This document shows, in pieces, positions 439 to 11,739 of a DNA stretch of 64,000 bases. The DNA is from an uncultured delta proteobacterium. Its GTDB lineage: Bacteria > Desulfobacterota > RBG-13-43-22. The DNA lies in NCBI GenBank assembly GCA_963843145.1, contig CAWJJC010000011.1, forward strand, positions 17,793-81,792. The letters run 5' to 3'. The position numbers were made by a program, and so were the translations under genes. Within the stretch, counting starts at the first letter, position 1; the number at the start of each line of letters is the position of its first letter. The notes under the pieces are model-generated. The model saw only the letters and a list, made by a program, of their open reading frames with translations. It was not told the DNA's origin and did not search any database.

Positions 439-726
439 ATGCTGATGGAGGAACACCTGGGCACTATTACTCAGAAAGGACAGGTCACCATTCCTCTGGC
501 GATCCGCAAGCTGCTGGGGGTGAAATCACGGGACCGGGTGGCCTTCCGTGTCATCGAGGGACGGGTGGAACTTGCCCCGGCCACGATGTCTCTGGAAGAC
601 ACCTACGGGGCGGTCAAGCCGACCGCCCGCCCTGAAAAATGGTCTGAGATCCGCCGCCGGGTTCGGGAGGAAAAGGTGGGGCTGCGGACCGGCAAAACCC
701 AACGTCCACGGAAGGAAGGCCGCTGA
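439..726 (+). CDS. vapB: AbrB/MazE/SpoVT family antitoxin
   Basis: TITQKGQVTIPLAIRKLLGV motif; stop overlaps the PIN toxin start. Confidence 0.9.
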   Translation: MLMEEHLGTITQKGQVTIPLAIRKLLGVKSRDRVAFRVIEGRVELAPATMSLEDTYGAVKPTARPEKWSEIRRRVREEKVGLRTGKTQRPRKEGR

Positions 727-1133
727 TGGATTTTTTGGATACCAATGTAATCCTCCGGTACCTGACCCGGGACGACCCGGTTAAAGCCGAACGATGTTAC
801 GAGCTTTTTCAGCGGGTCAAACGTAAAGAGGTCAGGCTGACGACCTCGGAATCGGTTCTGGCCGAAGTTGTTTATGTGTTATCCTCCCGGTCGGTTTACA
901 ATCAAGGCCGCGAACAAGTGCGGAATTTGCTGCTGCCGATCGTCTCTCTAAGTGGACTTCTGGTTCCACATCGACGCTCATTCTTACGGGCCCTCGAATT
1001 CTACGCCGTCACGAATATGGATTTTGAAGATTGCCTTTCCCTGTCCCATATGGAACGGTTGAAAATAAAAACAATTTTGAGCTACGATCGGGATTTCGAC
1101 CGGATAAATACCATCCAGCGCCACGAACCCTGA
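726..1133 (+). CDS. vapC: PIN-domain toxin
   Basis: FLDTNVILRYL...VLAEVVYVL...DFEDC...SYDRDFD acidic PIN residues. Confidence 0.92.
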   Translation: MDFLDTNVILRYLTRDDPVKAERCYELFQRVKRKEVRLTTSESVLAEVVYVLSSRSVYNQGREQVRNLLLPIVSLSGLLVPHRRSFLRALEFYAVTNMDFEDCLSLSHMERLKIKTILSYDRDFDRINTIQRHEP

Positions 1134-1481
1134 GCTGGGCGATAGGGAGGCGATTAATCCGGACGAGTCGAAGATTTGGGAATTCACCCCCACTCCCAAA
1201 CCGGGCACATCCCGGCGGTGGGCGGGATGCGCGATTAAGAAGTTAAATTAATTTGACAATCTGGAATATTTGGGATAGGAATTCGTGAAGATCGAATATT
1301 GGATTTCTTAATGGACAACCTTTAACCAAAGGAGTGTCGCTGGAAGAATATTAGACCCCATTTCTTATTTAAAGAAGTGGGGATTTTTTTTGTGGAGATG
1401 ATATCGCCGCAGTTCATAGGCGGATGAAACCTGGTTAAGGAATTTTTGGGGGAAAAACCAGTGCCGGAAAAAATGCGGCAT

Positions 1482-1569
1482 TGCTCTTATCGGGTGTCCC
1501 GGTGTCAGTGGCCTGCACGGGCATATCAGCCTGGCGACCTGCGTGCCACGGGTCAACGTCGCATTAGGG
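1482..1569 (+). mobile_element. degenerate attC-like site (repeat type B, copy 1)
   Basis: ...CGACCTGCGTGCCACGGGTCAACGTCGC-ATTAGGG, homologous to 2530-2619 and 3878-3967; lies just before an RBS and ATG. Confidence 0.6.
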
Positions 1570-1584
1570 TCAAGAGGTGCTGCT

Positions 1585-2412
1585 ATGAGCGATGAAATTA
1601 TTGATGTTAAAGATCATGAACCATCTCGTAGTGGTAAAATAGCCAAAATTTCGCGTAGTGCTCTGCAGATTGCTGGCGGGGCAATTCCTTTTGCGGGCGG
1701 TATGTTGTCTGCGGCGGCGGGCGCTTGGTCGGAAGGAGAACAGGAAAAAGTAAATAGGTTCTTCAAACATTGGCTTCAGATGCTTCAAGATGAATTAAAG
1801 GAAAAAGAGCAGACAATAATCGAAATCATGGCGCGGCTTGATTTACAGGATGAAGAGATTTCCAAGAGAGTTGAGAGCAAAGAATATCAGACATTAATAA
1901 AGAAAACTTTCCGCGAATGGTCCGGGGCGGAGAGCGAAGAAAAGCGCAAGTACATTAGAAACATTTTGTCCAATGCCGCAGCCACCCAAGTTACCAGCGA
2001 TGATGTAGTCCGCCTGTTCATCGACTGGATAAATCAGTATTCAGAGATGCATTTCCAGGTTATAGGTGCCATTTATAATAGCGACGGTATTACAAGAGGA
2101 CGGATTTGGACAAAGATCGGCAAAGGGCCTGTTCGTGAGGATTCTGCTGATGCGGATCTTTATAAACTCCTATTCCGAGATCTAAGCACCGGGGGGATCA
2201 TTCGTCAGCACCGAGAAGTCGATCGGTTCGGCAATTTTATACCTAAGTCCGCAGAAAGGCGGTTAAAAGGCAGTGGGACAAAACCACTTGTTTCTGCTTT
2301 TGATAATGAGGAAGGGTATGAATTAACGGCTTTGGGACGAGATTTTGTTCATTATGCAATGACGGATTTACCTCTCAGAATCGAATTTACCACTGATCCA
2401 AATAGGCCATAA
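1585..2412 (+). CDS. hypothetical cassette protein, Abi-alpha/DUF4393-like
   Basis: N-terminal AIPFAGGMLS helix, ESEEKRKYIRNILSNAA, C-terminal wHTH-like YELTALGRDFV; stop falls inside the attC inverse core. Confidence 0.6.
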   Translation: MSDEIIDVKDHEPSRSGKIAKISRSALQIAGGAIPFAGGMLSAAAGAWSEGEQEKVNRFFKHWLQMLQDELKEKEQTIIEIMARLDLQDEEISKRVESKEYQTLIKKTFREWSGAESEEKRKYIRNILSNAAATQVTSDDVVRLFIDWINQYSEMHFQVIGAIYNSDGITRGRIWTKIGKGPVREDSADADLYKLLFRDLSTGGIIRQHREVDRFGNFIPKSAERRLKGSGTKPLVSAFDNEEGYELTALGRDFVHYAMTDLPLRIEFTTDPNRP

Positions 2413-2516
2413 CGTCGCCATCCACTCGGACCTGAACAAAGCCGGGCGCATTTGGTCAATGGCACCCGCAAGGTTAAAGGCAGCGAAGTTTAGGCCGGTG
2501 ATGACCGGCGGTGGCT
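2407..2516 (+). mobile_element. attC site (degenerate)
   Basis: CCATAAC inverse core; CATCCACTCGGACCTGAAC pairs with GTTTAGGCCGGTGATG; core degenerate (GGTGGCT). Confidence 0.65.
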
Positions 2517-2529
2517 CCACCTCCGGCGT

Positions 2530-2619
2530 CGCCAACCAGGCCATTGGATACTGTGTCACTGCCTCGCCTGGGCCTCCGGCCCAGCAACCTGCGTGTCACG
2601 GGTAAACGCCACGTTAACT
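2530..2619 (+). mobile_element. attC site (repeat type B, copy 2)
   Basis: CGCCAAC...CTGGGC-CTCCG-GCCCAG...GCGTGTCACGGGTAAACGCCAC-GTTAACT. Confidence 0.7.
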
Positions 2620-2637
2620 GGCTTAGGGTAAACGAAG

Positions 2638-3663
2638 GTGAAGGAACGCGACCTAAAAATACTCTGGGGACGATCAGGGAACCGTTGCGCCCTCTGCAAG
2701 ATCGAACTAACGCCGAGCGGAGACCGTGAGACTTTAGGAGAGATGGCGCACATTGTCGGTAGACGGGCGGACGGCCCACGCGGTATCGAAGACCTGCCAG
2801 CCGAGGAAAGGGATACGTACTCGAACCTAATTCTCCTTTGCCCAACACACCATCGGGAGATCGATAAGAACGAGGCCGACTGGTCATCCGTCAAGATAAG
2901 GCTAGTGAAGGTCGAACACGAGCAGTGGGTTTCGAGCATGCTCGCACGCTCCGAGATTGCAGTCGCAGAGATCGACAACTCGGACTTCTTGAATTCCCGC
3001 ATACGATTCTGGATTGACTTCTGCGATGGCGGGATAGGCATAAGCGTCTCACTCACTCCATTACGAATCGGATCTGACGTTGTAAATGTCCTAGACGAAT
3101 TGGGCCAACACACTCTGGAGTCCGCACGAGTCGCTGGGCACGGATACCAAGGTGCACTAAACTCCTACAAGACAAGGCCTTCCGAGCACGGTATCTGCAA
3201 TGAGCGTCGTAGTGAGCCCGGCGGGCTAGATGGTTACTCCTTCCACTTATTCAACTCTGGGCACTGTGAAGTCATCTATGCGCTCAATTCAGAATCTGCA
3301 CGACTTGCTGAACAGTGCGAAGGGCGCGTCGGCGACTACCACGGCGCAACCAAACTGATAAGGTACACAGATCTCGCGAAGCGCATCATTGCCAGTATTG
3401 CTTGGACTAGGCAAGTGTGGCAGCACTTTCTGCCCTTTCGCTATATGGATTTCCGGATCCATGTGCTCTCAGCTCTGAGGCTAACCATCTTCTCTTATGA
3501 GGATGATTGGCGAGTCGGTGTTTTCGGTTACCCTTTGACCAGTGATTCCCTTATATTCAAAGAGGTCTATGAGAAGAATGAATTCAACGCGCAGGTTGAG
3601 ACAGAGGTTCTCAGGTGGGTTGCAAGGTCATTCGGGCTCCAGGCTGTTGACCATTTACGATGA
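2638..3663 (+). CDS. HNH endonuclease fused to an uncharacterised C-terminal domain (cassette)
   Basis: LWGRSGNRCALC...GEMAHIVGRRADGPRG...NLILLCPTHHREID. Confidence 0.85.
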   Translation: MKERDLKILWGRSGNRCALCKIELTPSGDRETLGEMAHIVGRRADGPRGIEDLPAEERDTYSNLILLCPTHHREIDKNEADWSSVKIRLVKVEHEQWVSSMLARSEIAVAEIDNSDFLNSRIRFWIDFCDGGIGISVSLTPLRIGSDVVNVLDELGQHTLESARVAGHGYQGALNSYKTRPSEHGICNERRSEPGGLDGYSFHLFNSGHCEVIYALNSESARLAEQCEGRVGDYHGATKLIRYTDLAKRIIASIAWTRQVWQHFLPFRYMDFRIHVLSALRLTIFSYEDDWRVGVFGYPLTSDSLIFKEVYEKNEFNAQVETEVLRWVARSFGLQAVDHLR

Positions 3664-3704
3664 GGGAGGGCGGCTCGTCCGTCCATTCCCGTTCCGGTGA
3701 TGCC

Positions 3705-3809
3705 AACTAATAAATGGATCGAATTGGTAGGCAAAAGAGTCAATCCCCTTACAAGAGGAAGAGTAAGGGTAGCGCCAATTTCGCCTACAGCTCATCCCTG
3801 GCGTTGGCA
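3705..3809 (+). mobile_element. attC site
   Basis: AACTAAT...GGATCGAATTGGTAGGCAAAA pairs with TTTCGCCTACAGCTCATCC...GC-GTTGGCA. Confidence 0.7.
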
Positions 3810-3877
3810 ACTCCTCGGCGACACCATGCGTTGTTGCCCCAGTCGGTCCCTGTCTCGGTCGGCTTCGTCTTTGGCGA

Positions 3878-3967
3878 CGCAAACTAGGCCATAGAACCCG
3901 TTAGTACTGGGTTGCATGGTCCTTCGACCCAGCAACCAACGTGCCACGGGTCAATTCCGCATTATGT
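3878..3967 (+). mobile_element. attC site (repeat type B, copy 3)
   Basis: CGCAAACTAGGCCAT...CCAGCAACCAACGTGCCACGGGTCAATTCCGC-ATTATGT; core complementary to CACATAAC at the end of the next gene. Confidence 0.65.
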
Positions 3968-3984
3968 GACCAGGGAATATAAGA

Positions 3985-4725
3985 ATGGACGATGATAATC
4001 TGAAAAAGAAGATCAATGAGTTGGCCGATGAGTCCAGCGTCATAATAGCAAATCCAGGGGACATAGAAAAACTTAAGAAGCAAGGATTACCATTTCGCGT
4101 CGTACCCTCTCAGACTATTGCCGATCTTTTTCAAGAGCGTCTGAAAACCGCAGTGGATGTTGTTGCACAATTGCCCGCTCTACCGGATAGCCTACCCCCA
4201 GCTATTAAATCCCTTTATCAAGAGATACGGGAATGTATCTTTTTCGGCCTTAATGGAGCTGCTATCACTCTCTCTGGGAATCTTATTGAATTCACTCTTA
4301 AACATGCAACATATGTCAAAGAAGTCGGCGGCTACCAAGAATACGATCCGGAGAAGTGGGATCAATTTGAAAAGATTGAATTCGGCGATGCTATAGGGCG
4401 CGCGAAAAGATCGGGCTTGTTAAGGTCCAAAATAGCAAAACAGCTTCAATCATTTCGTGAGGATATTCGGAACCCTTACAGCCATTACAACATAAAGAAG
4501 ATCACTGAAGACGTAATTGCCGGGAGGGTCAAAAGGATCAATTTGGCAACGGGAGAGGTCGAGGAAATGGACATACCAGCAAAAGACAGCCCGATGATAC
4601 AAGCCCAAGTTAAGCCGTGGGTAGACGGACAAAGGGTACTTGCTGTTTTCCATTTCGCTGATGGGATAGTGAAGTACTTGATTGCAATGCTAGAAGAGTA
4701 TCTGAAAAGCACACATAACGAATAA
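3985..4725 (+). CDS. HEPN-domain (DUF4145-like) protein (cassette)
   Basis: LYQEIRECIFFGLNGAAITLSGNLIEFTLK helix and Rx4H motif RNPYSH. Confidence 0.7.
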   Translation: MDDDNLKKKINELADESSVIIANPGDIEKLKKQGLPFRVVPSQTIADLFQERLKTAVDVVAQLPALPDSLPPAIKSLYQEIRECIFFGLNGAAITLSGNLIEFTLKHATYVKEVGGYQEYDPEKWDQFEKIEFGDAIGRAKRSGLLRSKIAKQLQSFREDIRNPYSHYNIKKITEDVIAGRVKRINLATGEVEEMDIPAKDSPMIQAQVKPWVDGQRVLAVFHFADGIVKYLIAMLEEYLKSTHNE

Positions 4726-4740
4726 GTGCACCAGACTCCG
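4713..4740 (+). mobile_element. truncated attC (left half only)
   Basis: ACATAAC inverse core then GTGCACCAGACTCCG; no matching right arm. Confidence 0.45.
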
Positions 4741-5161
4741 AAATGGGGTCGGGCCGGCATTGAGTCATGAGAATGAAGGGTCGGACCCAATGCCGTTAAC
4801 TTAACAGAAAGAGCCTGTTTTTACTATCTTTAATGGTTTCGGGTTCCAGGGGTAACGGTTGTGGGACAGGGTATTTACGAGGACGTCCCCGGCGGCGCTT
4901 TTCCAAGCCCCGACTTTTCCTGCGATATTCCTGTCGATCCCGAGTGAACTTACGGCCCGGTTTTACAGACACGCGGTGCCGGGCACAGAACTTTATGAAG
5001 ACTTCCCAAAGAGGCCAGAGCAGCTTTTCCGAGGTGGCGAACAATAATCTTAGAAAAAAACGGGTTTCGGGAAGCTCCCGAGCAAAACTGATCTGGCCAA
5101 TGGAAACATATCAGATGAGGTGTGAACCAGGATATTAACCCGATCAACGGCGTCACATACA

Positions 5162-5506: not shown

Positions 5507-5658
5507 GAAGCGCAGTATATCCAAGGAGATGTTCGCCGGAAGAAGCGAATCGGGGTCTAACCAAACAAGCCCATTGAATTTAACTTAATCATGTTGAATC
5601 CTGGATGCGTTTGAAGACTTATTAAGGGTATCATAATTGTCTGTACATACCACCGACC

Positions 5659-5742
5659 GTCATCCCCGAGTGTCTTTGTCGGGGATCCAGAATCGTACCA
5701 GACCGAGGCTGGATTCCCGCCCAGAAGCGCTGCGGGAATGAC
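5659..5742. repeat. palindromic intergenic repeat (GTCATCCCCG...GGATCCAG...CTGGATTCCCGC...GCGGGAATGAC)
   Basis: Copies at 39279, 48175 and a variant at 34954. Confidence 0.85.
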
Positions 5743-5836
5743 GATAAGGGAACCTGGAGATAGCCGATTCTATTATGCGACCTTTAATAAAATGCCCTTA
5801 TTACCCTCGAAAAGAGGTTTCTAAGCAGACAAACCC

Positions 5837-6040
5837 ATGCCCAGGGCCAATCGGCATTTCATCTCCGGTCAGATCTGGCACATCACCCACCGCGGCCACA
5901 AGAGGAGATTATTACTTTCCGGGCTTTTCGCTGGACGGAAAGCCTGGCGGTGGGTGGAGAGGCCTTTTAAAAGAAATTCAGGAGGCTTTAAGGGTATGGG
6001 CCAGCGGCCGTTCAGTCGTCTCGGCCGAGGAAAATTATGA
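5837..6040 (+). pseudogene. REP-associated tyrosine transposase (RAYT/Y1) remnant, internally deleted
   Basis: N-terminus MPRANRHFISGQIWHITHRGH joined to a C-terminal-like EALRVWASGRSVVSAEENYE in another frame. Confidence 0.6.
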
Positions 6041-6598
6041 ATGGCGAATGACGATCGCACCAAGATAATTCCCAGAGGAACGCCGGAATCAGCGGCCATG
6101 TCGGCAAACGTCAAACGAGCGCTGGCGATCACCGCCCGCCTCAACCGTTTGACGTACAACGATGCGGACGAAGTCCGCGCCTTGTTCAGCGAGCTCATCG
6201 GCAGGAAGGTGGACGACAGCTTTCTATTGATTCCACCATTCTACACTACTGGCGGGCCCGAAATCCGTGTTGGGCGTAATGTTTTCGTAAATCAGAACTG
6301 CACTTTTTATGATCTTGGCGGCCTCGACATTGCCGATGATGTGATGATCGGCCCGAACGTGAGCATCATCACGTCCGGCCATCCCATTGAACCTTCTCAG
6401 CGGCGCGCCTTTGTAGTCGCCAAGCCCATTGTGATTGAAAGAAACGTCTGGATCGCAGTCGGCGCAACGATCATCGGCGGAGTGACGGTCGGCGAGAACT
6501 CTGTTGTGGCGGCAGGCTCCGTAGTCACCAAAGACGTTCCCCCGAATACTCTTGTCGGAGGAAATCCGGCGAGAATCATTCGCTTGATTGGAGACTGA
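6041..6598 (+). CDS. sugar O-acetyltransferase (maltose/galactoside acetyltransferase family)
   Basis: Hexapeptide repeats, PPFYT, GNPARII. Confidence 0.92.
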   Translation: MANDDRTKIIPRGTPESAAMSANVKRALAITARLNRLTYNDADEVRALFSELIGRKVDDSFLLIPPFYTTGGPEIRVGRNVFVNQNCTFYDLGGLDIADDVMIGPNVSIITSGHPIEPSQRRAFVVAKPIVIERNVWIAVGATIIGGVTVGENSVVAAGSVVTKDVPPNTLVGGNPARIIRLIGD

Positions 6599-6611
6599 GG
6601 AAAGGAACGCC

Positions 6612-6683
6612 ACCCAGCATTGCACTGCAACTGACCGCCAACCCGCTTCGCGGCTTGTCGGCGGCTGGGTTTAGGCCTTGGGC
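6612..6683 (+). mobile_element. degenerate attC site
   Basis: ACCCAGC...CTGCAACTGACCGCCAACCCGCTTCGCGGCTTGTCGGCGGCTGGG...CTTGGGC imperfect palindrome between two short genes. Confidence 0.65.
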
Positions 6684-6709
6684 CCTGGAAGTACAGAGAG
6701 GAGAGCACG

Positions 6710-7054
6710 ATGAGCAACGAACAGGTGGCACCTGAGACGAAAGGGGTTACGGTGAAGTTACTGGCCACGGTTGACCTTGGCCCTGAGATCGAGGGCCTGG
6801 CCGGGCGCCAACTTCGAATGCGGATGGTGACCATCGAGCCTGGAGGCGTCTTCGGCCCGGTTCACGACCATAAAGGCAGACCGGGCACCGTCTACATACT
6901 GCAAGGAACGATCACGGACCATCGAAATGGAATCGCGACCGACTATGGACCGGGAGTGGGCTGGCCCGAGGATAGGAACACCACTCACTGGCTTGAGAAC
7001 AGAGGAACGATTCCGGCAGTGGAGATCTCGGTCGATATAGTCAGGCAAGAGTAA
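6710..7054 (+). CDS. cupin domain protein
   Basis: VTIEPGG...HDHKGRPG...HWLENRG cupin motifs. Confidence 0.88.
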   Translation: MSNEQVAPETKGVTVKLLATVDLGPEIEGLAGRQLRMRMVTIEPGGVFGPVHDHKGRPGTVYILQGTITDHRNGIATDYGPGVGWPEDRNTTHWLENRGTIPAVEISVDIVRQE

Positions 7055-8849: not shown

Positions 8850-8947
8850 TTGTCCGGGGGACGATCGCAGACGCCTTCTTCGATCATCAGGGCCGCTTCG
8901 TTGATGCCCAGGGCCAGGAGGGTGTCGACAATCTCTTGGGGTTCCAT
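8850..8947 (-). pseudogene. fragment of 3-hydroxyacyl-CoA dehydrogenase/FadB C-terminal domain
   Basis: Manual translation MEPQEIVDTLLALGINEAALMIEEGVCDRP. Confidence 0.55.
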
Positions 8948-8998
8948 TTTCCGGGAAACGATCAGTGGGGAATAGGGGTCGGACCATCCGAACCGTTT

Positions 8999-9163
8999 CA
9001 GGAGGCCTTAGGGGTAAAGGCCGGCGGCCGTTCAGTCATCTCGGATGGTGAACAGCAGCAGCTCCGGGATCTTCAACAGCCTTACAACGTCAATTTTGCC
9101 CCCGAAAAGGGCCGTTTAAGGCAAAATATTGGCCTCGAATGGGACGTTTATCCCGAAACTTAA
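8999..9163 (+). pseudogene. RAYT transposase C-terminal remnant
   Basis: QEALGVKAGGRSVISDG...; DNA similar to 5979-6030. Confidence 0.5.
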
Positions 9164-9741: not shown

Positions 9742-11739
9742 TCAAGGCGTAACGATCGAGAAGTTCCAATCAGGATCATCGAGCAGCGAGAACAGGGAGA
9801 CCAGCTTCAGTCGATCTCCTTTGATATGCAGATCGTCGGAGAAAACCAGATCCTTTATCGAGGCCTGCTTGGTTACAAGTTTGATCCAGAAGGAGCGGGT
9901 CAGGGTTACGGTGACATCGGCCTGCGGGTCCGCCGCCGTTTCTTTGTAGTGGAGGACGGAGTTTTCGATATGCACGACCATCGTCGCGCCTACGTCCTTA
10001 AAAACGAAATTAGCGGTCAGCTTCTTGCCGTCCGCCTTGGGTCCATCCAACCGGGTTGCCATCGCGGCAAAGAACTGGTCGAGGGGCAAGCTGCGCAAGA
10101 CGCCGGCGGCGGCATCCAGCGTCGTCGTTCCGCTGACTCCGTGGCGCAGCTCCTGCGCTCCGGTGAGATAGACGTCGCGCCAGGGTCCGGACTCTGCGAG
10201 ATAGCCGAGCTGATCATAGGTCCGAGCCAACAAGTCTTTGGCGGCGTCGTTTCCGGGAGCGGAGAACACGACGTGGTTGAGCAACGTAGCCGCCCAACGG
10301 TAGTCGCCCTGGTCGTAGGCTTCACCCGCCCTGGTAATGACGGCGCCGGCTCCGCCCATGGCCTCGACATAGCGCCGACCCTCATCTTCCGGCGGTAGCG
10401 GGTCGAGGTTCGCCGGGTTGCCGTCGAACCAGCCGAAGTAGAACTGGTAAACGGCGCGCGCGTTGTGTTTGGCCGTCCCGTAGTAGCCACGGTTGGGGAA
10501 GGATCGCCGGAGGCTTTCGGGGAGTACCATGTTTTCGGCGATCTCGCCCGGCGTCATACCTCTTGACGCCAGGCGCAACGTTTGGTCGTGCAGGTAGCGG
10601 TAGGTATCCCGATGTTTTTTCAGGTAGTCGATCACTCGTTCCGCGCCCCACACCGGCCAGTGATGACTGTTGAAAACGACCTCGGCCTGGCCGCCAAACA
10701 GGTCTAGGGCCTCGTCGATGTACCCGCTCCAAAGCAGAGCGTCGCGCACCTTGGCCCCTCGAAGGGTGTAGAGGTTGTGCATGTTCTGCGACACGATTTC
10801 GGCTCCGCAGAAACTCTTAAACTGCGGCAGGAAGAATGTGAACTCCGTCGGGGCTTCGGAATGCGGCACGTACTGAAAGACGAACTCGACGCCGTCGATT
10901 TCCATCTTCTGTCCGGTATGATCAACGATTTCGGTGGGTGCGAAAATGGATACGTCACTGACCGCCGGTCCCTTCCCCAGGCCCGTATCGACGTGGCCGC
11001 GGTCGGTCCGGCTCAGACCGGTGCCGTACATGTAGCGTGCTCGGCGCCCCATGACAACGCCGCCGAGGACGTTCTCACTGACCGCCTCAGCCATGAAATC
11101 CTTGGGTGCGATGAGTCGGACCTTGCCGGATCGAATGTCTTCCTCGCTGGTGACGCCCTTGATGCCGCCCCAATGATCGATATGACTGTGGGTGAAGATG
11201 ACCGCTGCCAGCGACCGTTCACCAAGGGAACGATTGACGAGGGCCAGCGCACGCTCGGCAGTCTCGGAGGCGGTGAGCGGGTCGACGAGGATACGGCCGC
11301 TTTGCCCCTCGATGATGCTCAGGTTCGCCAGGTCGTAGCCGCGAACCTGATAGATGCGGTCTGTCACTTTGAAGAGGCCGTTGATATTATTGAGCTTGGC
11401 CTGGCGCCACAGGCTCGGGTTCACACTGGGCGGCGCATCGCCGGTGACGAAGTCGTAGGACGGACGATCCCAGATCACTCGACCGGCACCGGTCTTCGTC
11501 ACCAGGGGATCGTCCGTCGTCATAAACCCTCGATGCGCGTCGTCGAACTCCGACCTGTCGTCTAGGGGGAGTTCCGCACCCATCGCCGCATTGGCGTTCG
11601 CCGTCAGGTCACTTGCCCGGGCATGCCCGTCTCCATCTGCATCGGGGCCGAAATTCCTGGCTTCCGGGCTTTTTTTGAGGTACGACGCCAGTGCCGTCAA
11701 ACCGCTCACGAGCCTGGTCCCGAATGAAGGTGGCCGCAT
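9742..11739 (-). CDS. alkyl/aryl sulfatase (SdsA1/BDS1 family, MBL fold, C-terminal SCP2-like domain)
   Basis: VNPSLWRQAKLN, THSHIDHWGG, HNLYTLRGAKVRD, HHWP, GWFDGNPANL. Confidence 0.93.
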   Translation of the reverse strand: MRPPSFGTRLVSGLTALASYLKKSPEARNFGPDADGDGHARASDLTANANAAMGAELPLDDRSEFDDAHRGFMTTDDPLVTKTGAGRVIWDRPSYDFVTGDAPPSVNPSLWRQAKLNNINGLFKVTDRIYQVRGYDLANLSIIEGQSGRILVDPLTASETAERALALVNRSLGERSLAAVIFTHSHIDHWGGIKGVTSEEDIRSGKVRLIAPKDFMAEAVSENVLGGVVMGRRARYMYGTGLSRTDRGHVDTGLGKGPAVSDVSIFAPTEIVDHTGQKMEIDGVEFVFQYVPHSEAPTEFTFFLPQFKSFCGAEIVSQNMHNLYTLRGAKVRDALLWSGYIDEALDLFGGQAEVVFNSHHWPVWGAERVIDYLKKHRDTYRYLHDQTLRLASRGMTPGEIAENMVLPESLRRSFPNRGYYGTAKHNARAVYQFYFGWFDGNPANLDPLPPEDEGRRYVEAMGGAGAVITRAGEAYDQGDYRWAATLLNHVVFSAPGNDAAKDLLARTYDQLGYLAESGPWRDVYLTGAQELRHGVSGTTTLDAAAGVLRSLPLDQFFAAMATRLDGPKADGKKLTANFVFKDVGATMVVHIENSVLHYKETAADPQADVTVTLTRSFWIKLVTKQASIKDLVFSDDLHIKGDRLKLVSLFSLLDDPDWNFSIVTP

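Follow-up and report, generated by a model that had tools for sequence, protein, structure and literature searches.

A probable integrase-less cluster of integron cassettes organised around a repeated attC-like hairpin in an uncultured delta proteobacterium

Introduction

What holds together three unrelated genes that follow one another on the same strand, each preceded by an imperfect palindrome, and does their grouping reflect the past activity of an integron? The question is raised by one end of a 64,000-nt stretch of metagenomic DNA from an uncultured delta proteobacterium (contig CAWJJC010000011.1 of assembly GCA_963843145.1, positions 17,793 to 81,792; hereafter the window), where genes 1, 2 and 3 (Table 1) had been read in a first-pass annotation as an integron cassette array devoid of integrase, in which every gene would look like an anti-phage effector. 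Clusters of attC sites lacking an integron integrase (CALIN) are defined by Cury et al. (2016, PMC4889954) as groups of two or more attC sites, clustered within 4 kb and without integrase. The interval 1461–4801 is, in our assessment, probably a small cassette cluster of this type. The kind of element is already known, and defence cassettes in integrons have already been published; what is unusual here is an ATT core, together with the apparent nature of the shared site as a minute unit without a gene, which occurs by itself in other genomes.

A repeated hairpin in front of each gene

The three open reading frames (ORFs) are real, they code for mutually unrelated proteins, and each is preceded by one copy of a single conserved hairpin element of ~102 nt, hereafter E, whose end lies 19–22 nt before the start codon. 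A palindrome 5′ of each of the same-strand genes had been reported in the first-pass annotation; the observation is in fact stronger than had been stated, because the three palindromes are homologous. A repeat search of the window brought out a 38-nt core in three copies (76–79% identity, spaced by 1050 and 1348 nt), and a 24-mer taken from copy 1 matches two sites with 3 mismatches or fewer (0.00 expected). A profile built from the three copies matched, with nhmmer, those three alone in 64 kb (E-value 3.6e-25 to 3.6e-22), the next-best match having an E-value of 0.78. The palindromes end in the cores ATTAGGG (1563), GTTAACT (2612) and ATTATGT (3961) for genes 1, 2 and 3, respectively.

Relatives of E were sought by scanning genomes with a 23-letter degenerate pattern derived from its core, which gave 15 loci (the genome of the window itself not being among them). 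Full-length E was found by nhmmer in four of these, as five copies (one each in L006, L008 and L014, and two in L010, called L010a and L010b; E-value 1.8e-30 to 2.1e-21), all in metagenome-assembled genomes of Deltaproteobacteria or Thermodesulfobacteriota. The other 11 loci match over only ~25–35 nt around the pattern (E-value 3.8e-4 to 0.33), and were set aside as chance or unrelated similarities. No match to E was found in plasmids by blastn. A decayed fourth copy in the window, suggested by similarity in a MAFFT alignment, was also rejected because nhmmer finds nothing there (1134–1470, 4726–5160 and 5507–5840 are empty even at an E-value of up to 100), and the same search gave no further E 3′ of gene 3.

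How are these units bounded? The right edge is sharp in all eight copies, mean pairwise identity being 85% over the last 40 nt and 28% over the 30 nt that follow the terminal dinucleotide. This dinucleotide is TT in seven copies and GT in that of L006, and is preceded by A in seven copies (L006 included) and by G in one (copy 2 of the window). The left edge reads [G/A]↓TTG[G/T]C... (the arrow marks the junction) in the five copies where it can be placed, identity outside being 32%, and the beginning of the unit is complementary to its own R″ box (described below) at 5–8 of 8–9 positions. Both edges are thus those expected of cassette boundaries, exact in 8/8 copies on the right and of the form [G/A]↓TT in 5/5 on the left. 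Short units measure 102 nt (L010a) and 104 nt (L014), and long units, with a partial duplicate of ~55–60 nt in front, 158, 161 and 160 nt (window copy 3, L008 and L010b). Copy 3 of the window is made up of a 55-nt partial duplicate E′ (3804–3858), a 103-nt E (3859–3961) and TT; copy 2 fits the short form (2511–2612, 102 nt) but begins with GTG, and the left edge of copy 1, which is uncertain, was set by the unit length of ~102 nt. Recombination at integron core sites leaves edges of this [G/A]↓TT form on either side, and E, with its leader of ~15 nt, is on this comparison a gene-less unit of 102–104 nt (158–161 nt in the long form) that is found alone in other genomes.

E compared with the anatomy of attC sites

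Nivina et al. (2016, PMC5027507) describe attC sites in their Introduction as hairpins of 57–141 nt with R and L boxes, an unpaired spacer of about 5–6 nt per arm and, on the L″ arm, two or three extrahelical bases spaced by about 6 bp, of which the distal one is T on the bottom strand; the AAC/GTT triplet is the only stretch conserved among all of them. The consensus of E reads, on the top strand, R″ CACCAAC or CGCCAAC, a spacer of 6–7 nt, L″ ATTGGAC, a structured terminal region of ~50 nt, L′ GGTCAAC, a spacer of 5–6 nt, and R′ [A/G]TTnnnn, that is ~89 nt from R″ to R′. Length, spacers and boxes are those of the imperfect hairpin of an attC site: 75.6% of the cells of the proposed hairpin are paired in register, against 27–37% when the partners are slid. 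Two extrahelical bases stand on the L″ arm, 5–6 bp from each other according to which of the two Gs of a doublet extrudes. On the top strand they are this G and an A, so that on the bottom strand the distal base is T and the proximal one C, not the usual G; the L014 and L008 copies have a third extrahelical base. Since the same ATT junction recurs in independent contexts, the site can be argued to have been active.

The genes also have palindromes of their own. Inverse cores were confirmed at the 3′ end of all three: GCCATAAC for gene 1 (2404–2411, overlapping the stop codon), TGCCAAC for gene 2 (3701–3707, starting at the next base after the true stop at 3698–3700) and CACATAAC for gene 3 (4712–4719). 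The complementarity between the core at 3961 and the inverse core at 4712, which the first-pass annotation had noted, extends to 7 of 8 positions (ATTATGTG, 3961–3968), and the corresponding comparison of the cassette start with its own inverse core gives 6/8 for gene 1. TGCCAAC is complementary at 7/7 positions to GTTGGCA (3803–3809), which is the start of the long E unit, judged by homology to L008 and L010b. For gene 2, an attC-like palindrome of its own is well supported, its cores closing a bottom-strand fold (z −2.66) that only 3 of 200 shuffled sequences equal. Support is moderate for that of gene 3, which ends in GTTAACT (4795–4801; fold z −2.30, with 5 of 200 shuffles as good), and weak for the candidate of gene 1.

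Contexts of the relatives and an apparently disrupted gene

The surroundings of E in the four other genomes were explored by a Pfam scan of 68 ORFs of L006, L008, L010 and L014. The genes beside E are typical integron cargo: in L010, ParD/ParE, BrnT, a glyoxalase, a GNAT acetyltransferase and a nitroreductase; in L014, genes for a Macro-domain protein and for one with a metallo-beta-lactamase fold; in L006, an alpha/beta hydrolase. This cargo is embedded among housekeeping genes (hyp genes, sucCD, thiamine genes). Locus L010 also contains two palindromes, unrelated in sequence and with canonical cores (fold z −2.9 and −2.5). One ends in GTTAGAC, 5′ of the GNAT gene; the other starts at GGCTAAC, which overlaps the stop codon of the GNAT gene, ends at GTTGTCG and adjoins the left edge of a long form of E. 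The proteins of genes 1–3, and the VapB, VapC, YCII, hexapeptide and cupin proteins, were searched by tblastn in the loci that had been fetched, where none has a homologue.

In L008, the 161-nt unit (9983–10160, minus strand) lies inside a FadR-like TetR gene, between G and TT. The upstream piece (170 aa) aligns to residues 9–164 of the 194 of 3whb_A, and to positions 17–108 of the 133 of the TetR_C_4 profile, and the frame resumes directly after the unit for 67 more codons. The case for a split gene rests on this frame and on the ~30 missing residues, because the C-terminal piece, searched alone, gave nothing useful in PDB or Pfam. On this sequence comparison the unit appears to split the TetR gene at G↓TT, which fits the attG-type cassette insertion described by Loot et al. 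(2023, bioRxiv 10.1101/2022.09.11.507474).

Search for an integrase

Is the array truly without integrase? Pfam was run on 62 ORFs of the window (the likeliest gene per place, drawn from 102 ORFs of at least 130 aa plus shorter ones), and PF00589 was found in none of them (0/62). Among the relatives, the single Phage_integrase match is a 301-aa protein of L014, 5 kb from E and beside HslV/HslU-like genes, which was read as XerC because of this context; apart from it, no integrase was found within 10 kb of the E relatives. Used as a tblastn query, this protein found no match in the three remaining E loci and, in the window, none better than an E-value of 0.052, which leaves the window without a recombinase remnant and is in keeping with what the first-pass annotation had said of it. 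Provided that E is an attC site, the locus has the features of a CALIN: sites on the same strand, at most 4 kb apart, and no nearby integrase within the window.

Weighing the readings

The assignment to a CALIN, already proposed in the first-pass annotation, is supported by comparative and structural evidence, namely the attC anatomy of E, its exact edges, the cassette cargo beside its relatives, the gene split at G↓TT and the integrase search. Several observations nevertheless weigh against it. The core triplet, expected to be GTT, is ATT in six of the eight copies, AGT in one (L006) and GTT in one (copy 2 of the window); as R″ keeps AAC, the changed base would face G as a G–T wobble on the recombinogenic bottom strand (AAT of R′ facing G of R″). 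The "unpaired" spacer is partly paired, at three positions (GGC with GCC). The folds of E itself have weak z-scores (−0.16 to −1.94), and its pairing is without covariation (RNAalifold and pair counts; 278 of 500 shuffles being at least as fully paired), because the eight copies are too similar. Two home-made attC scans, one based on R″/R′ complementarity with constrained fold energy and the other on canonical box geometry, gave 55 matches per strand and 36 in the window, and were dropped because they did not separate E from the background. The pattern search, by its design, finds only copies of E that keep the core, and a 102-nt cassette is very small. As to the genes' own sites, the start of the gene 2 cassette is complementary to its own inverse core at 3/8 positions only, the palindrome of gene 3 is without the canonical R″-spacer-L″ geometry, the fold of the gene 1 candidate is not significant (bottom strand, z −0.86), and the gap between this candidate and copy 2 of E is 23 nt. 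Lastly, G stands at four of five left junctions of E, despite the cost that a mismatch would have with IntI1: according to Frumerie et al. (PMC2811028), the identity of the first core base is unimportant for this integrase provided that both partner sites carry the same one, and a mismatch between partners cuts the recombination frequency 10^3- to 10^4-fold.

This rule of the same first base also bears on the limits of the mobile unit. Among ATT-type sites it favours recombination of E with E (PMC2811028), and it could be argued, with the strict alternation of E and genes in the window, that E is the true attC of composite cassettes, the mobile unit being a gene, a relic palindrome and E, from crossover to crossover. 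Such a view stays within the integron reading and differs in the limits of the unit only. We consider it rather unlikely: inside the TetR gene of L008, E has no partner gene beside it, it has its own [G/A]↓TT left edge right after a separate palindrome (L010, L008 and the window), and copy 2 carries G, not A. A departure from integrons altogether would be to see in E a hairpin repeat related to REP doublets forming hairpins (REPIN) or to miniature inverted-repeat transposable elements (MITE), moved by a Y1 transposase (of the REP-associated tyrosine transposase, RAYT, or IS200 type), with the three genes as mere island genes. REPIN/RAYT elements are imperfect hairpins of ~100 nt in intergenic DNA, present as many dispersed copies per genome and linked to a RAYT gene. 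The imperfect palindrome of E, of ~100 nt, resembles them, RAYT/IS200-like N-terminal remnants were recognised at 5837–6040 and near 8936–9163 (from a reading of the translations by eye; they have no Pfam match), and REP-like hairpins occur near E in L014 and, as GC hairpins, at about 5660–5745. These hairpins by the remnants are, however, unrelated to E, which is clustered and in few copies (all three within 2.5 kb, and none in the remaining ~59 kb of the window), is bounded on both sides by [G/A]↓TT junctions and no fixed tetranucleotide, and adjoins cassette-type genes, so that an origin of this kind is improbable.

Could E instead be conserved for a regulatory function, as a sigma-54 promoter or a small-RNA gene? 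Its most conserved core reads, on the minus strand, TGGCACG-N4-TTGC, which we take to be the −24/−12 consensus of sigma-54 promoters; the motif is exact in copy 3, departs from it by a single base in each of copies 1 and 2, and is present, by eye, in the five outside copies. It is directed away from the downstream gene, however, and its frequency is without excess (three occurrences in the window at up to one mismatch, against 3.42 ± 1.94 in shuffled sequences), while four of the five outside copies had been selected by a pattern that contains it. A promoter would explain neither the exact [A/G]↓TT edges nor the insertion in a gene, no sigma-70-type promoter was found in E, and no Rfam family matches it (on the window, 0 matches at the gathering threshold and, at an E-value of up to 10, five weak ones, none of them on E). 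A purely cis-regulatory role is thus very improbable. To our knowledge, Rfam has no attC family.

Under the preferred reading, as a CALIN, E would be an attC recombination site; an integron integrase provided in trans would cut its bottom strand in the folded state, with a crossover between [A/G] and TT of R′. The three genes would be promoter-poor cassettes that begin 19–22 nt before their start codons. Since the core of E begins with A and IntI1 needs the same base in both partners, E sites should recombine best with one another; the segments from E to E would then be the mobile units, which would explain the alternation E-gene-E-gene-E-gene. A bolder proposal goes further, and we regard it as a long shot: E would be a self-propagating, attC-only mini-cassette of 102 nt, to which the altered A↓TT triplet, with its G–T wobble, gives a private recombination specificity, and which spreads by itself into genomes, even into genes, and acts as a landing pad from which integrase-less arrays in Desulfobacterota are seeded and shuffled. 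As part of this proposal, the core of E may double as an antisense sigma-54 promoter, restraining the toxic effector gene upstream.

Cargo of the array

Do the three genes form a small defence island? The first-pass view of all three as likely anti-phage effectors is borne out in part: gene 2 is an HNH gene recognised by PADLOC, the family of gene 3 is DUF4145/HEPN, and gene 1 is matched by neither Pfam nor PADLOC and has a weak link to Abi_alpha, in two of 45 relatives only. The PADLOC check that the first-pass annotation had called for gave a match for gene 2 alone, and no convincing one for genes 1 and 3, even through their relatives, which weighs against a defensive role of these two.

The protein of gene 1 combines a hydrophobic, Gly-rich segment at its N terminus with long helices, and its C-terminal half is winged-helix-like. 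Its relatives number 2569 out of 3913 candidates, with 505 representatives at the 50% clustering level; the best 120 of the 2569 are 76–100% identical, and their names point to Desulfobulbaceae, Geobacter, Sulfurovum and an archaeal bin. Conservation in this unnamed family is unusually high and its source names span Desulfobacterota, Campylobacterota and an archaeal bin, a pattern that suggests a recent and wide horizontal spread. The protein has no match in Pfam (even at an E-value of up to 10) or in PADLOC. Abi_alpha (PF14337) is touched by 2/45 relatives (best E-value 2.4e-4), the window protein itself having no match to it, and one Atlas cluster (rank 9) carries this domain in 25% of its members; the relation to Abi-alpha is a lead only. 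In the AlphaFold2 (AF2) model (predicted local distance difference test, pLDDT, 85), the C-terminal half resembles MarR/PadR winged helices, at an E-value of 0.3 only, and Foldseek gave 0 matches in PDB and BFVD at an E-value of up to 1e-3.

The protein of gene 2 carries HNH_2 (PF13391) at residues 1–105 (E-value 1.1e-5; 25.6 bits for a 21-bit cut-off), and 16 PADLOC models match its residues 2–114, the best being PDC-M68A (9.7e-28, or about 1e-27) and SAVED-HNH (2.5e-23); the C-terminal domain, of ~240 aa, is uncharacterised. Its relatives, of 353 aa, have the C-terminal end ...IYDERGRLVRPFPFR. One of them, P0242 (353 aa), is 88% identical over residues 1–338, and a tail in another frame, LLTIYDEGGRLVRPFPFR, matches residues 336–353 of P0242 at 15/18 positions. 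The last 18 codons are in the other frame because of one extra base near 3641–3644, which is either a mutation (the gene being then a pseudogene) or a sequencing error. A single full-length homologue was found in plasmids (pNHAL01 of Nitrosococcus halophilus, 46.8% identity), in a same-strand run of genes that includes a restriction endonuclease. On this plasmid, a 220-aa gene with an R-x5-H motif stands 26 nt 5′ of the homologue (L016, 5298–5960); it was considered as a relative of gene 3 and rejected (hhalign probability 0.4).

Gene 3 has 238 relatives. DUF4145 (PF13643) is found in 32 of 44 aligned ones (best E-value 1.9e-6), the window protein itself being below reporting, and R162, N163 and H167 do not vary across 44 sequences, R162 and H167 giving an R-x4-H motif of the R-x4-6-H kind expected in the helical domain of HEPN proteins; DUF4145 is counted as a HEPN family by Anantharaman et al. 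(PMC3710099). The AF2 model is confident (pLDDT 89.1), and a Foldseek search of PDB gave 0 matches at an E-value of up to 1e-3.

Judged from its domains, the cargo would consist of single-gene, nucleic-acid-targeting effectors of abortive-infection type: a putative HNH DNase, probably impaired by the frameshift (gene 2), a putative HEPN RNase (gene 3), and an uncharacterised protein with a predicted winged-helix domain (gene 1). It is plausibly, not demonstrably, defensive. The three could instead be ordinary mobile-element or toxin-like genes, without anti-phage role, and this has some weight, though we hold it to be less likely than not to be correct: the frameshift of gene 2, the PADLOC result for genes 1 and 3, and a tblastn search of plasmid and phage collections, in which these two have no match, all point that way. 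On the other side stand the match of the HNH domain of gene 2 to PDC-M68A and to models of effectors of the CBASS type (cyclic oligonucleotide-based anti-phage signalling systems), and the precedent of Vibrio cholerae, in whose integron Darracq et al. (2024, bioRxiv 10.1101/2024.07.02.601686) report, as part of the anti-phage systems, single-gene cassettes for HNH-related proteins and for a protein with HEPN alone, and a cassette for an Abi-alpha-like protein (DUF2806).

Relation to known systems

To what extent does the locus resemble systems described elsewhere? With the CALIN of Cury et al. (PMC4889954) it shares the lack of a nearby intI and a cargo unrelated to resistance cassettes; membership is set there by the covariance model of IntegronFinder, whereas the attC sites were assigned here by comparison and anatomy, and have a triplet that is mostly ATT. 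The Vibrio cassettes of Darracq et al. offer a parallel in their small single-gene cargo, with HEPN, HNH and possibly Abi-alpha-like domains. They belong, however, to an integron with an integrase and were tested with phages, while the present genes, on a Desulfobacterota-like metagenomic contig, are likened to them by domain type only.

The ORF-free unit of E, directly 5′ of other cassettes, recalls the gene-less cassettes described by Blanco et al. (2024, PMC11014356), which often act as promoters. Those of Vibrio mostly have sense promoters, whereas E is without a sigma-70-type promoter and amounts to barely more than its attC of 102–104 nt. The lone units between or inside ordinary genes (L014, L008 and L006) are closer to single attC sites lacking an integron integrase (SALIN), which arise by cassette insertion at genomic GWT sites (attG) according to Loot et al. 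(2023, bioRxiv 10.1101/2022.09.11.507474); the junctions G↓TT and A↓TT fit GWT. That work was carried out with IntI1 in E. coli. From REPIN/RAYT elements, E differs by its clustering, its few copies, its [G/A]↓TT bounds and its ties to cassette cargo.

Should the reading be true, the locus would be a Desulfobacterota example of a role recently described for integron cassettes, that of storing compact genes against phages. Three single-gene candidates that can be cloned are on offer, among them a member of a very widespread family without known function (gene 1), 77–90% conserved among the 120 closest cluster representatives. As an ATT-type and nearly gene-free attC unit, E would also provide a natural test of the role of the cleavage triplet in the choice of partners, and a test case for the origin of integrase-less arrays.

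Genomic neighbourhood

Table 1. Features of the array and of its immediate surroundings (positions in the window)
Feature	Position	Strand	Remarks
Antitoxin/toxin pair	439–1133	+	MazE/PrlF-like antitoxin and PIN (VapC) toxin (Pfam); directly upstream of the array
E copy 1	1461–1565	+	ends in CGCA↓TT; nhmmer E-value 2.4e-22; 5′ half divergent
Gene 1	1585–2412	+	275 aa
Gene 1 cassette, attC candidate	2404–2494	+	GCCATAAC over the stop codon; ends in GTTTAGG
E copy 2	2511–2615	+	short form, 102 nt + TT; nhmmer E-value 2.2e-26
Gene 2	2638–3700	+	HNH nuclease gene; ORF call ends at 3663, true end 3700
Gene 2 cassette, attC-like palindrome	3701–3809	+	R″ TGCCAAC, R′ GTTGGCA
E copy 3	3804–3963	+	long form; nhmmer E-value 5.9e-27
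Gene 3	3985–4725	+	246 aa, DUF4145-type HEPN
Palindrome 3′ of gene 3	4712–4801	+	CACATAAC to GTTAACT; candidate attC
Sigma-54-like motifs	1534–1548, 2584–2598, 3932–3946	−	

The first 5 kb of the window are unlike the remainder, which, from ~9.7 kb onwards, is occupied by genes of acyl-CoA metabolism, ABC transporters and similar housekeeping functions. From the left end, an IclR-type regulator (minus strand) is followed by the antitoxin/toxin pair, a strong terminator-like hairpin (1356–1392, between the toxin pair and gene 1), and genes 1–3. A perfect inverted repeat of 15 nt lies at 389–425, just 5′ of the MazE/PrlF-VapC pair, and is probably its operator. Further on, a TTGACA hexamer near 1253 and the hairpin at 1356–1392 flank ~100 nt without ORF; this stretch within 1250–1392 may be a small RNA, and Rfam gives there a weak match to PyrR alone (E-value 2.2).

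At the right end of the array, an 82-aa ORF (4796–5044, minus strand) without Pfam match holds the motif RRGRPRKYP, presumably akin to the helix-turn-helix of insertion sequence (IS) transposases, and may be an IS remnant. The two RAYT/IS200-like remnant ORFs beyond it (5837–6040 and 8936–9163) share a 48-nt repeat (5977–6024 and 8997–9044, 88% identity). Between them, a hexapeptide acetyltransferase gene is followed by a palindrome of ~60 nt (6625–6686, ending in GTTTAGG, fold z −2.12) and then by a cupin gene; these two genes (6041–7054) may be additional cassettes of the same island.

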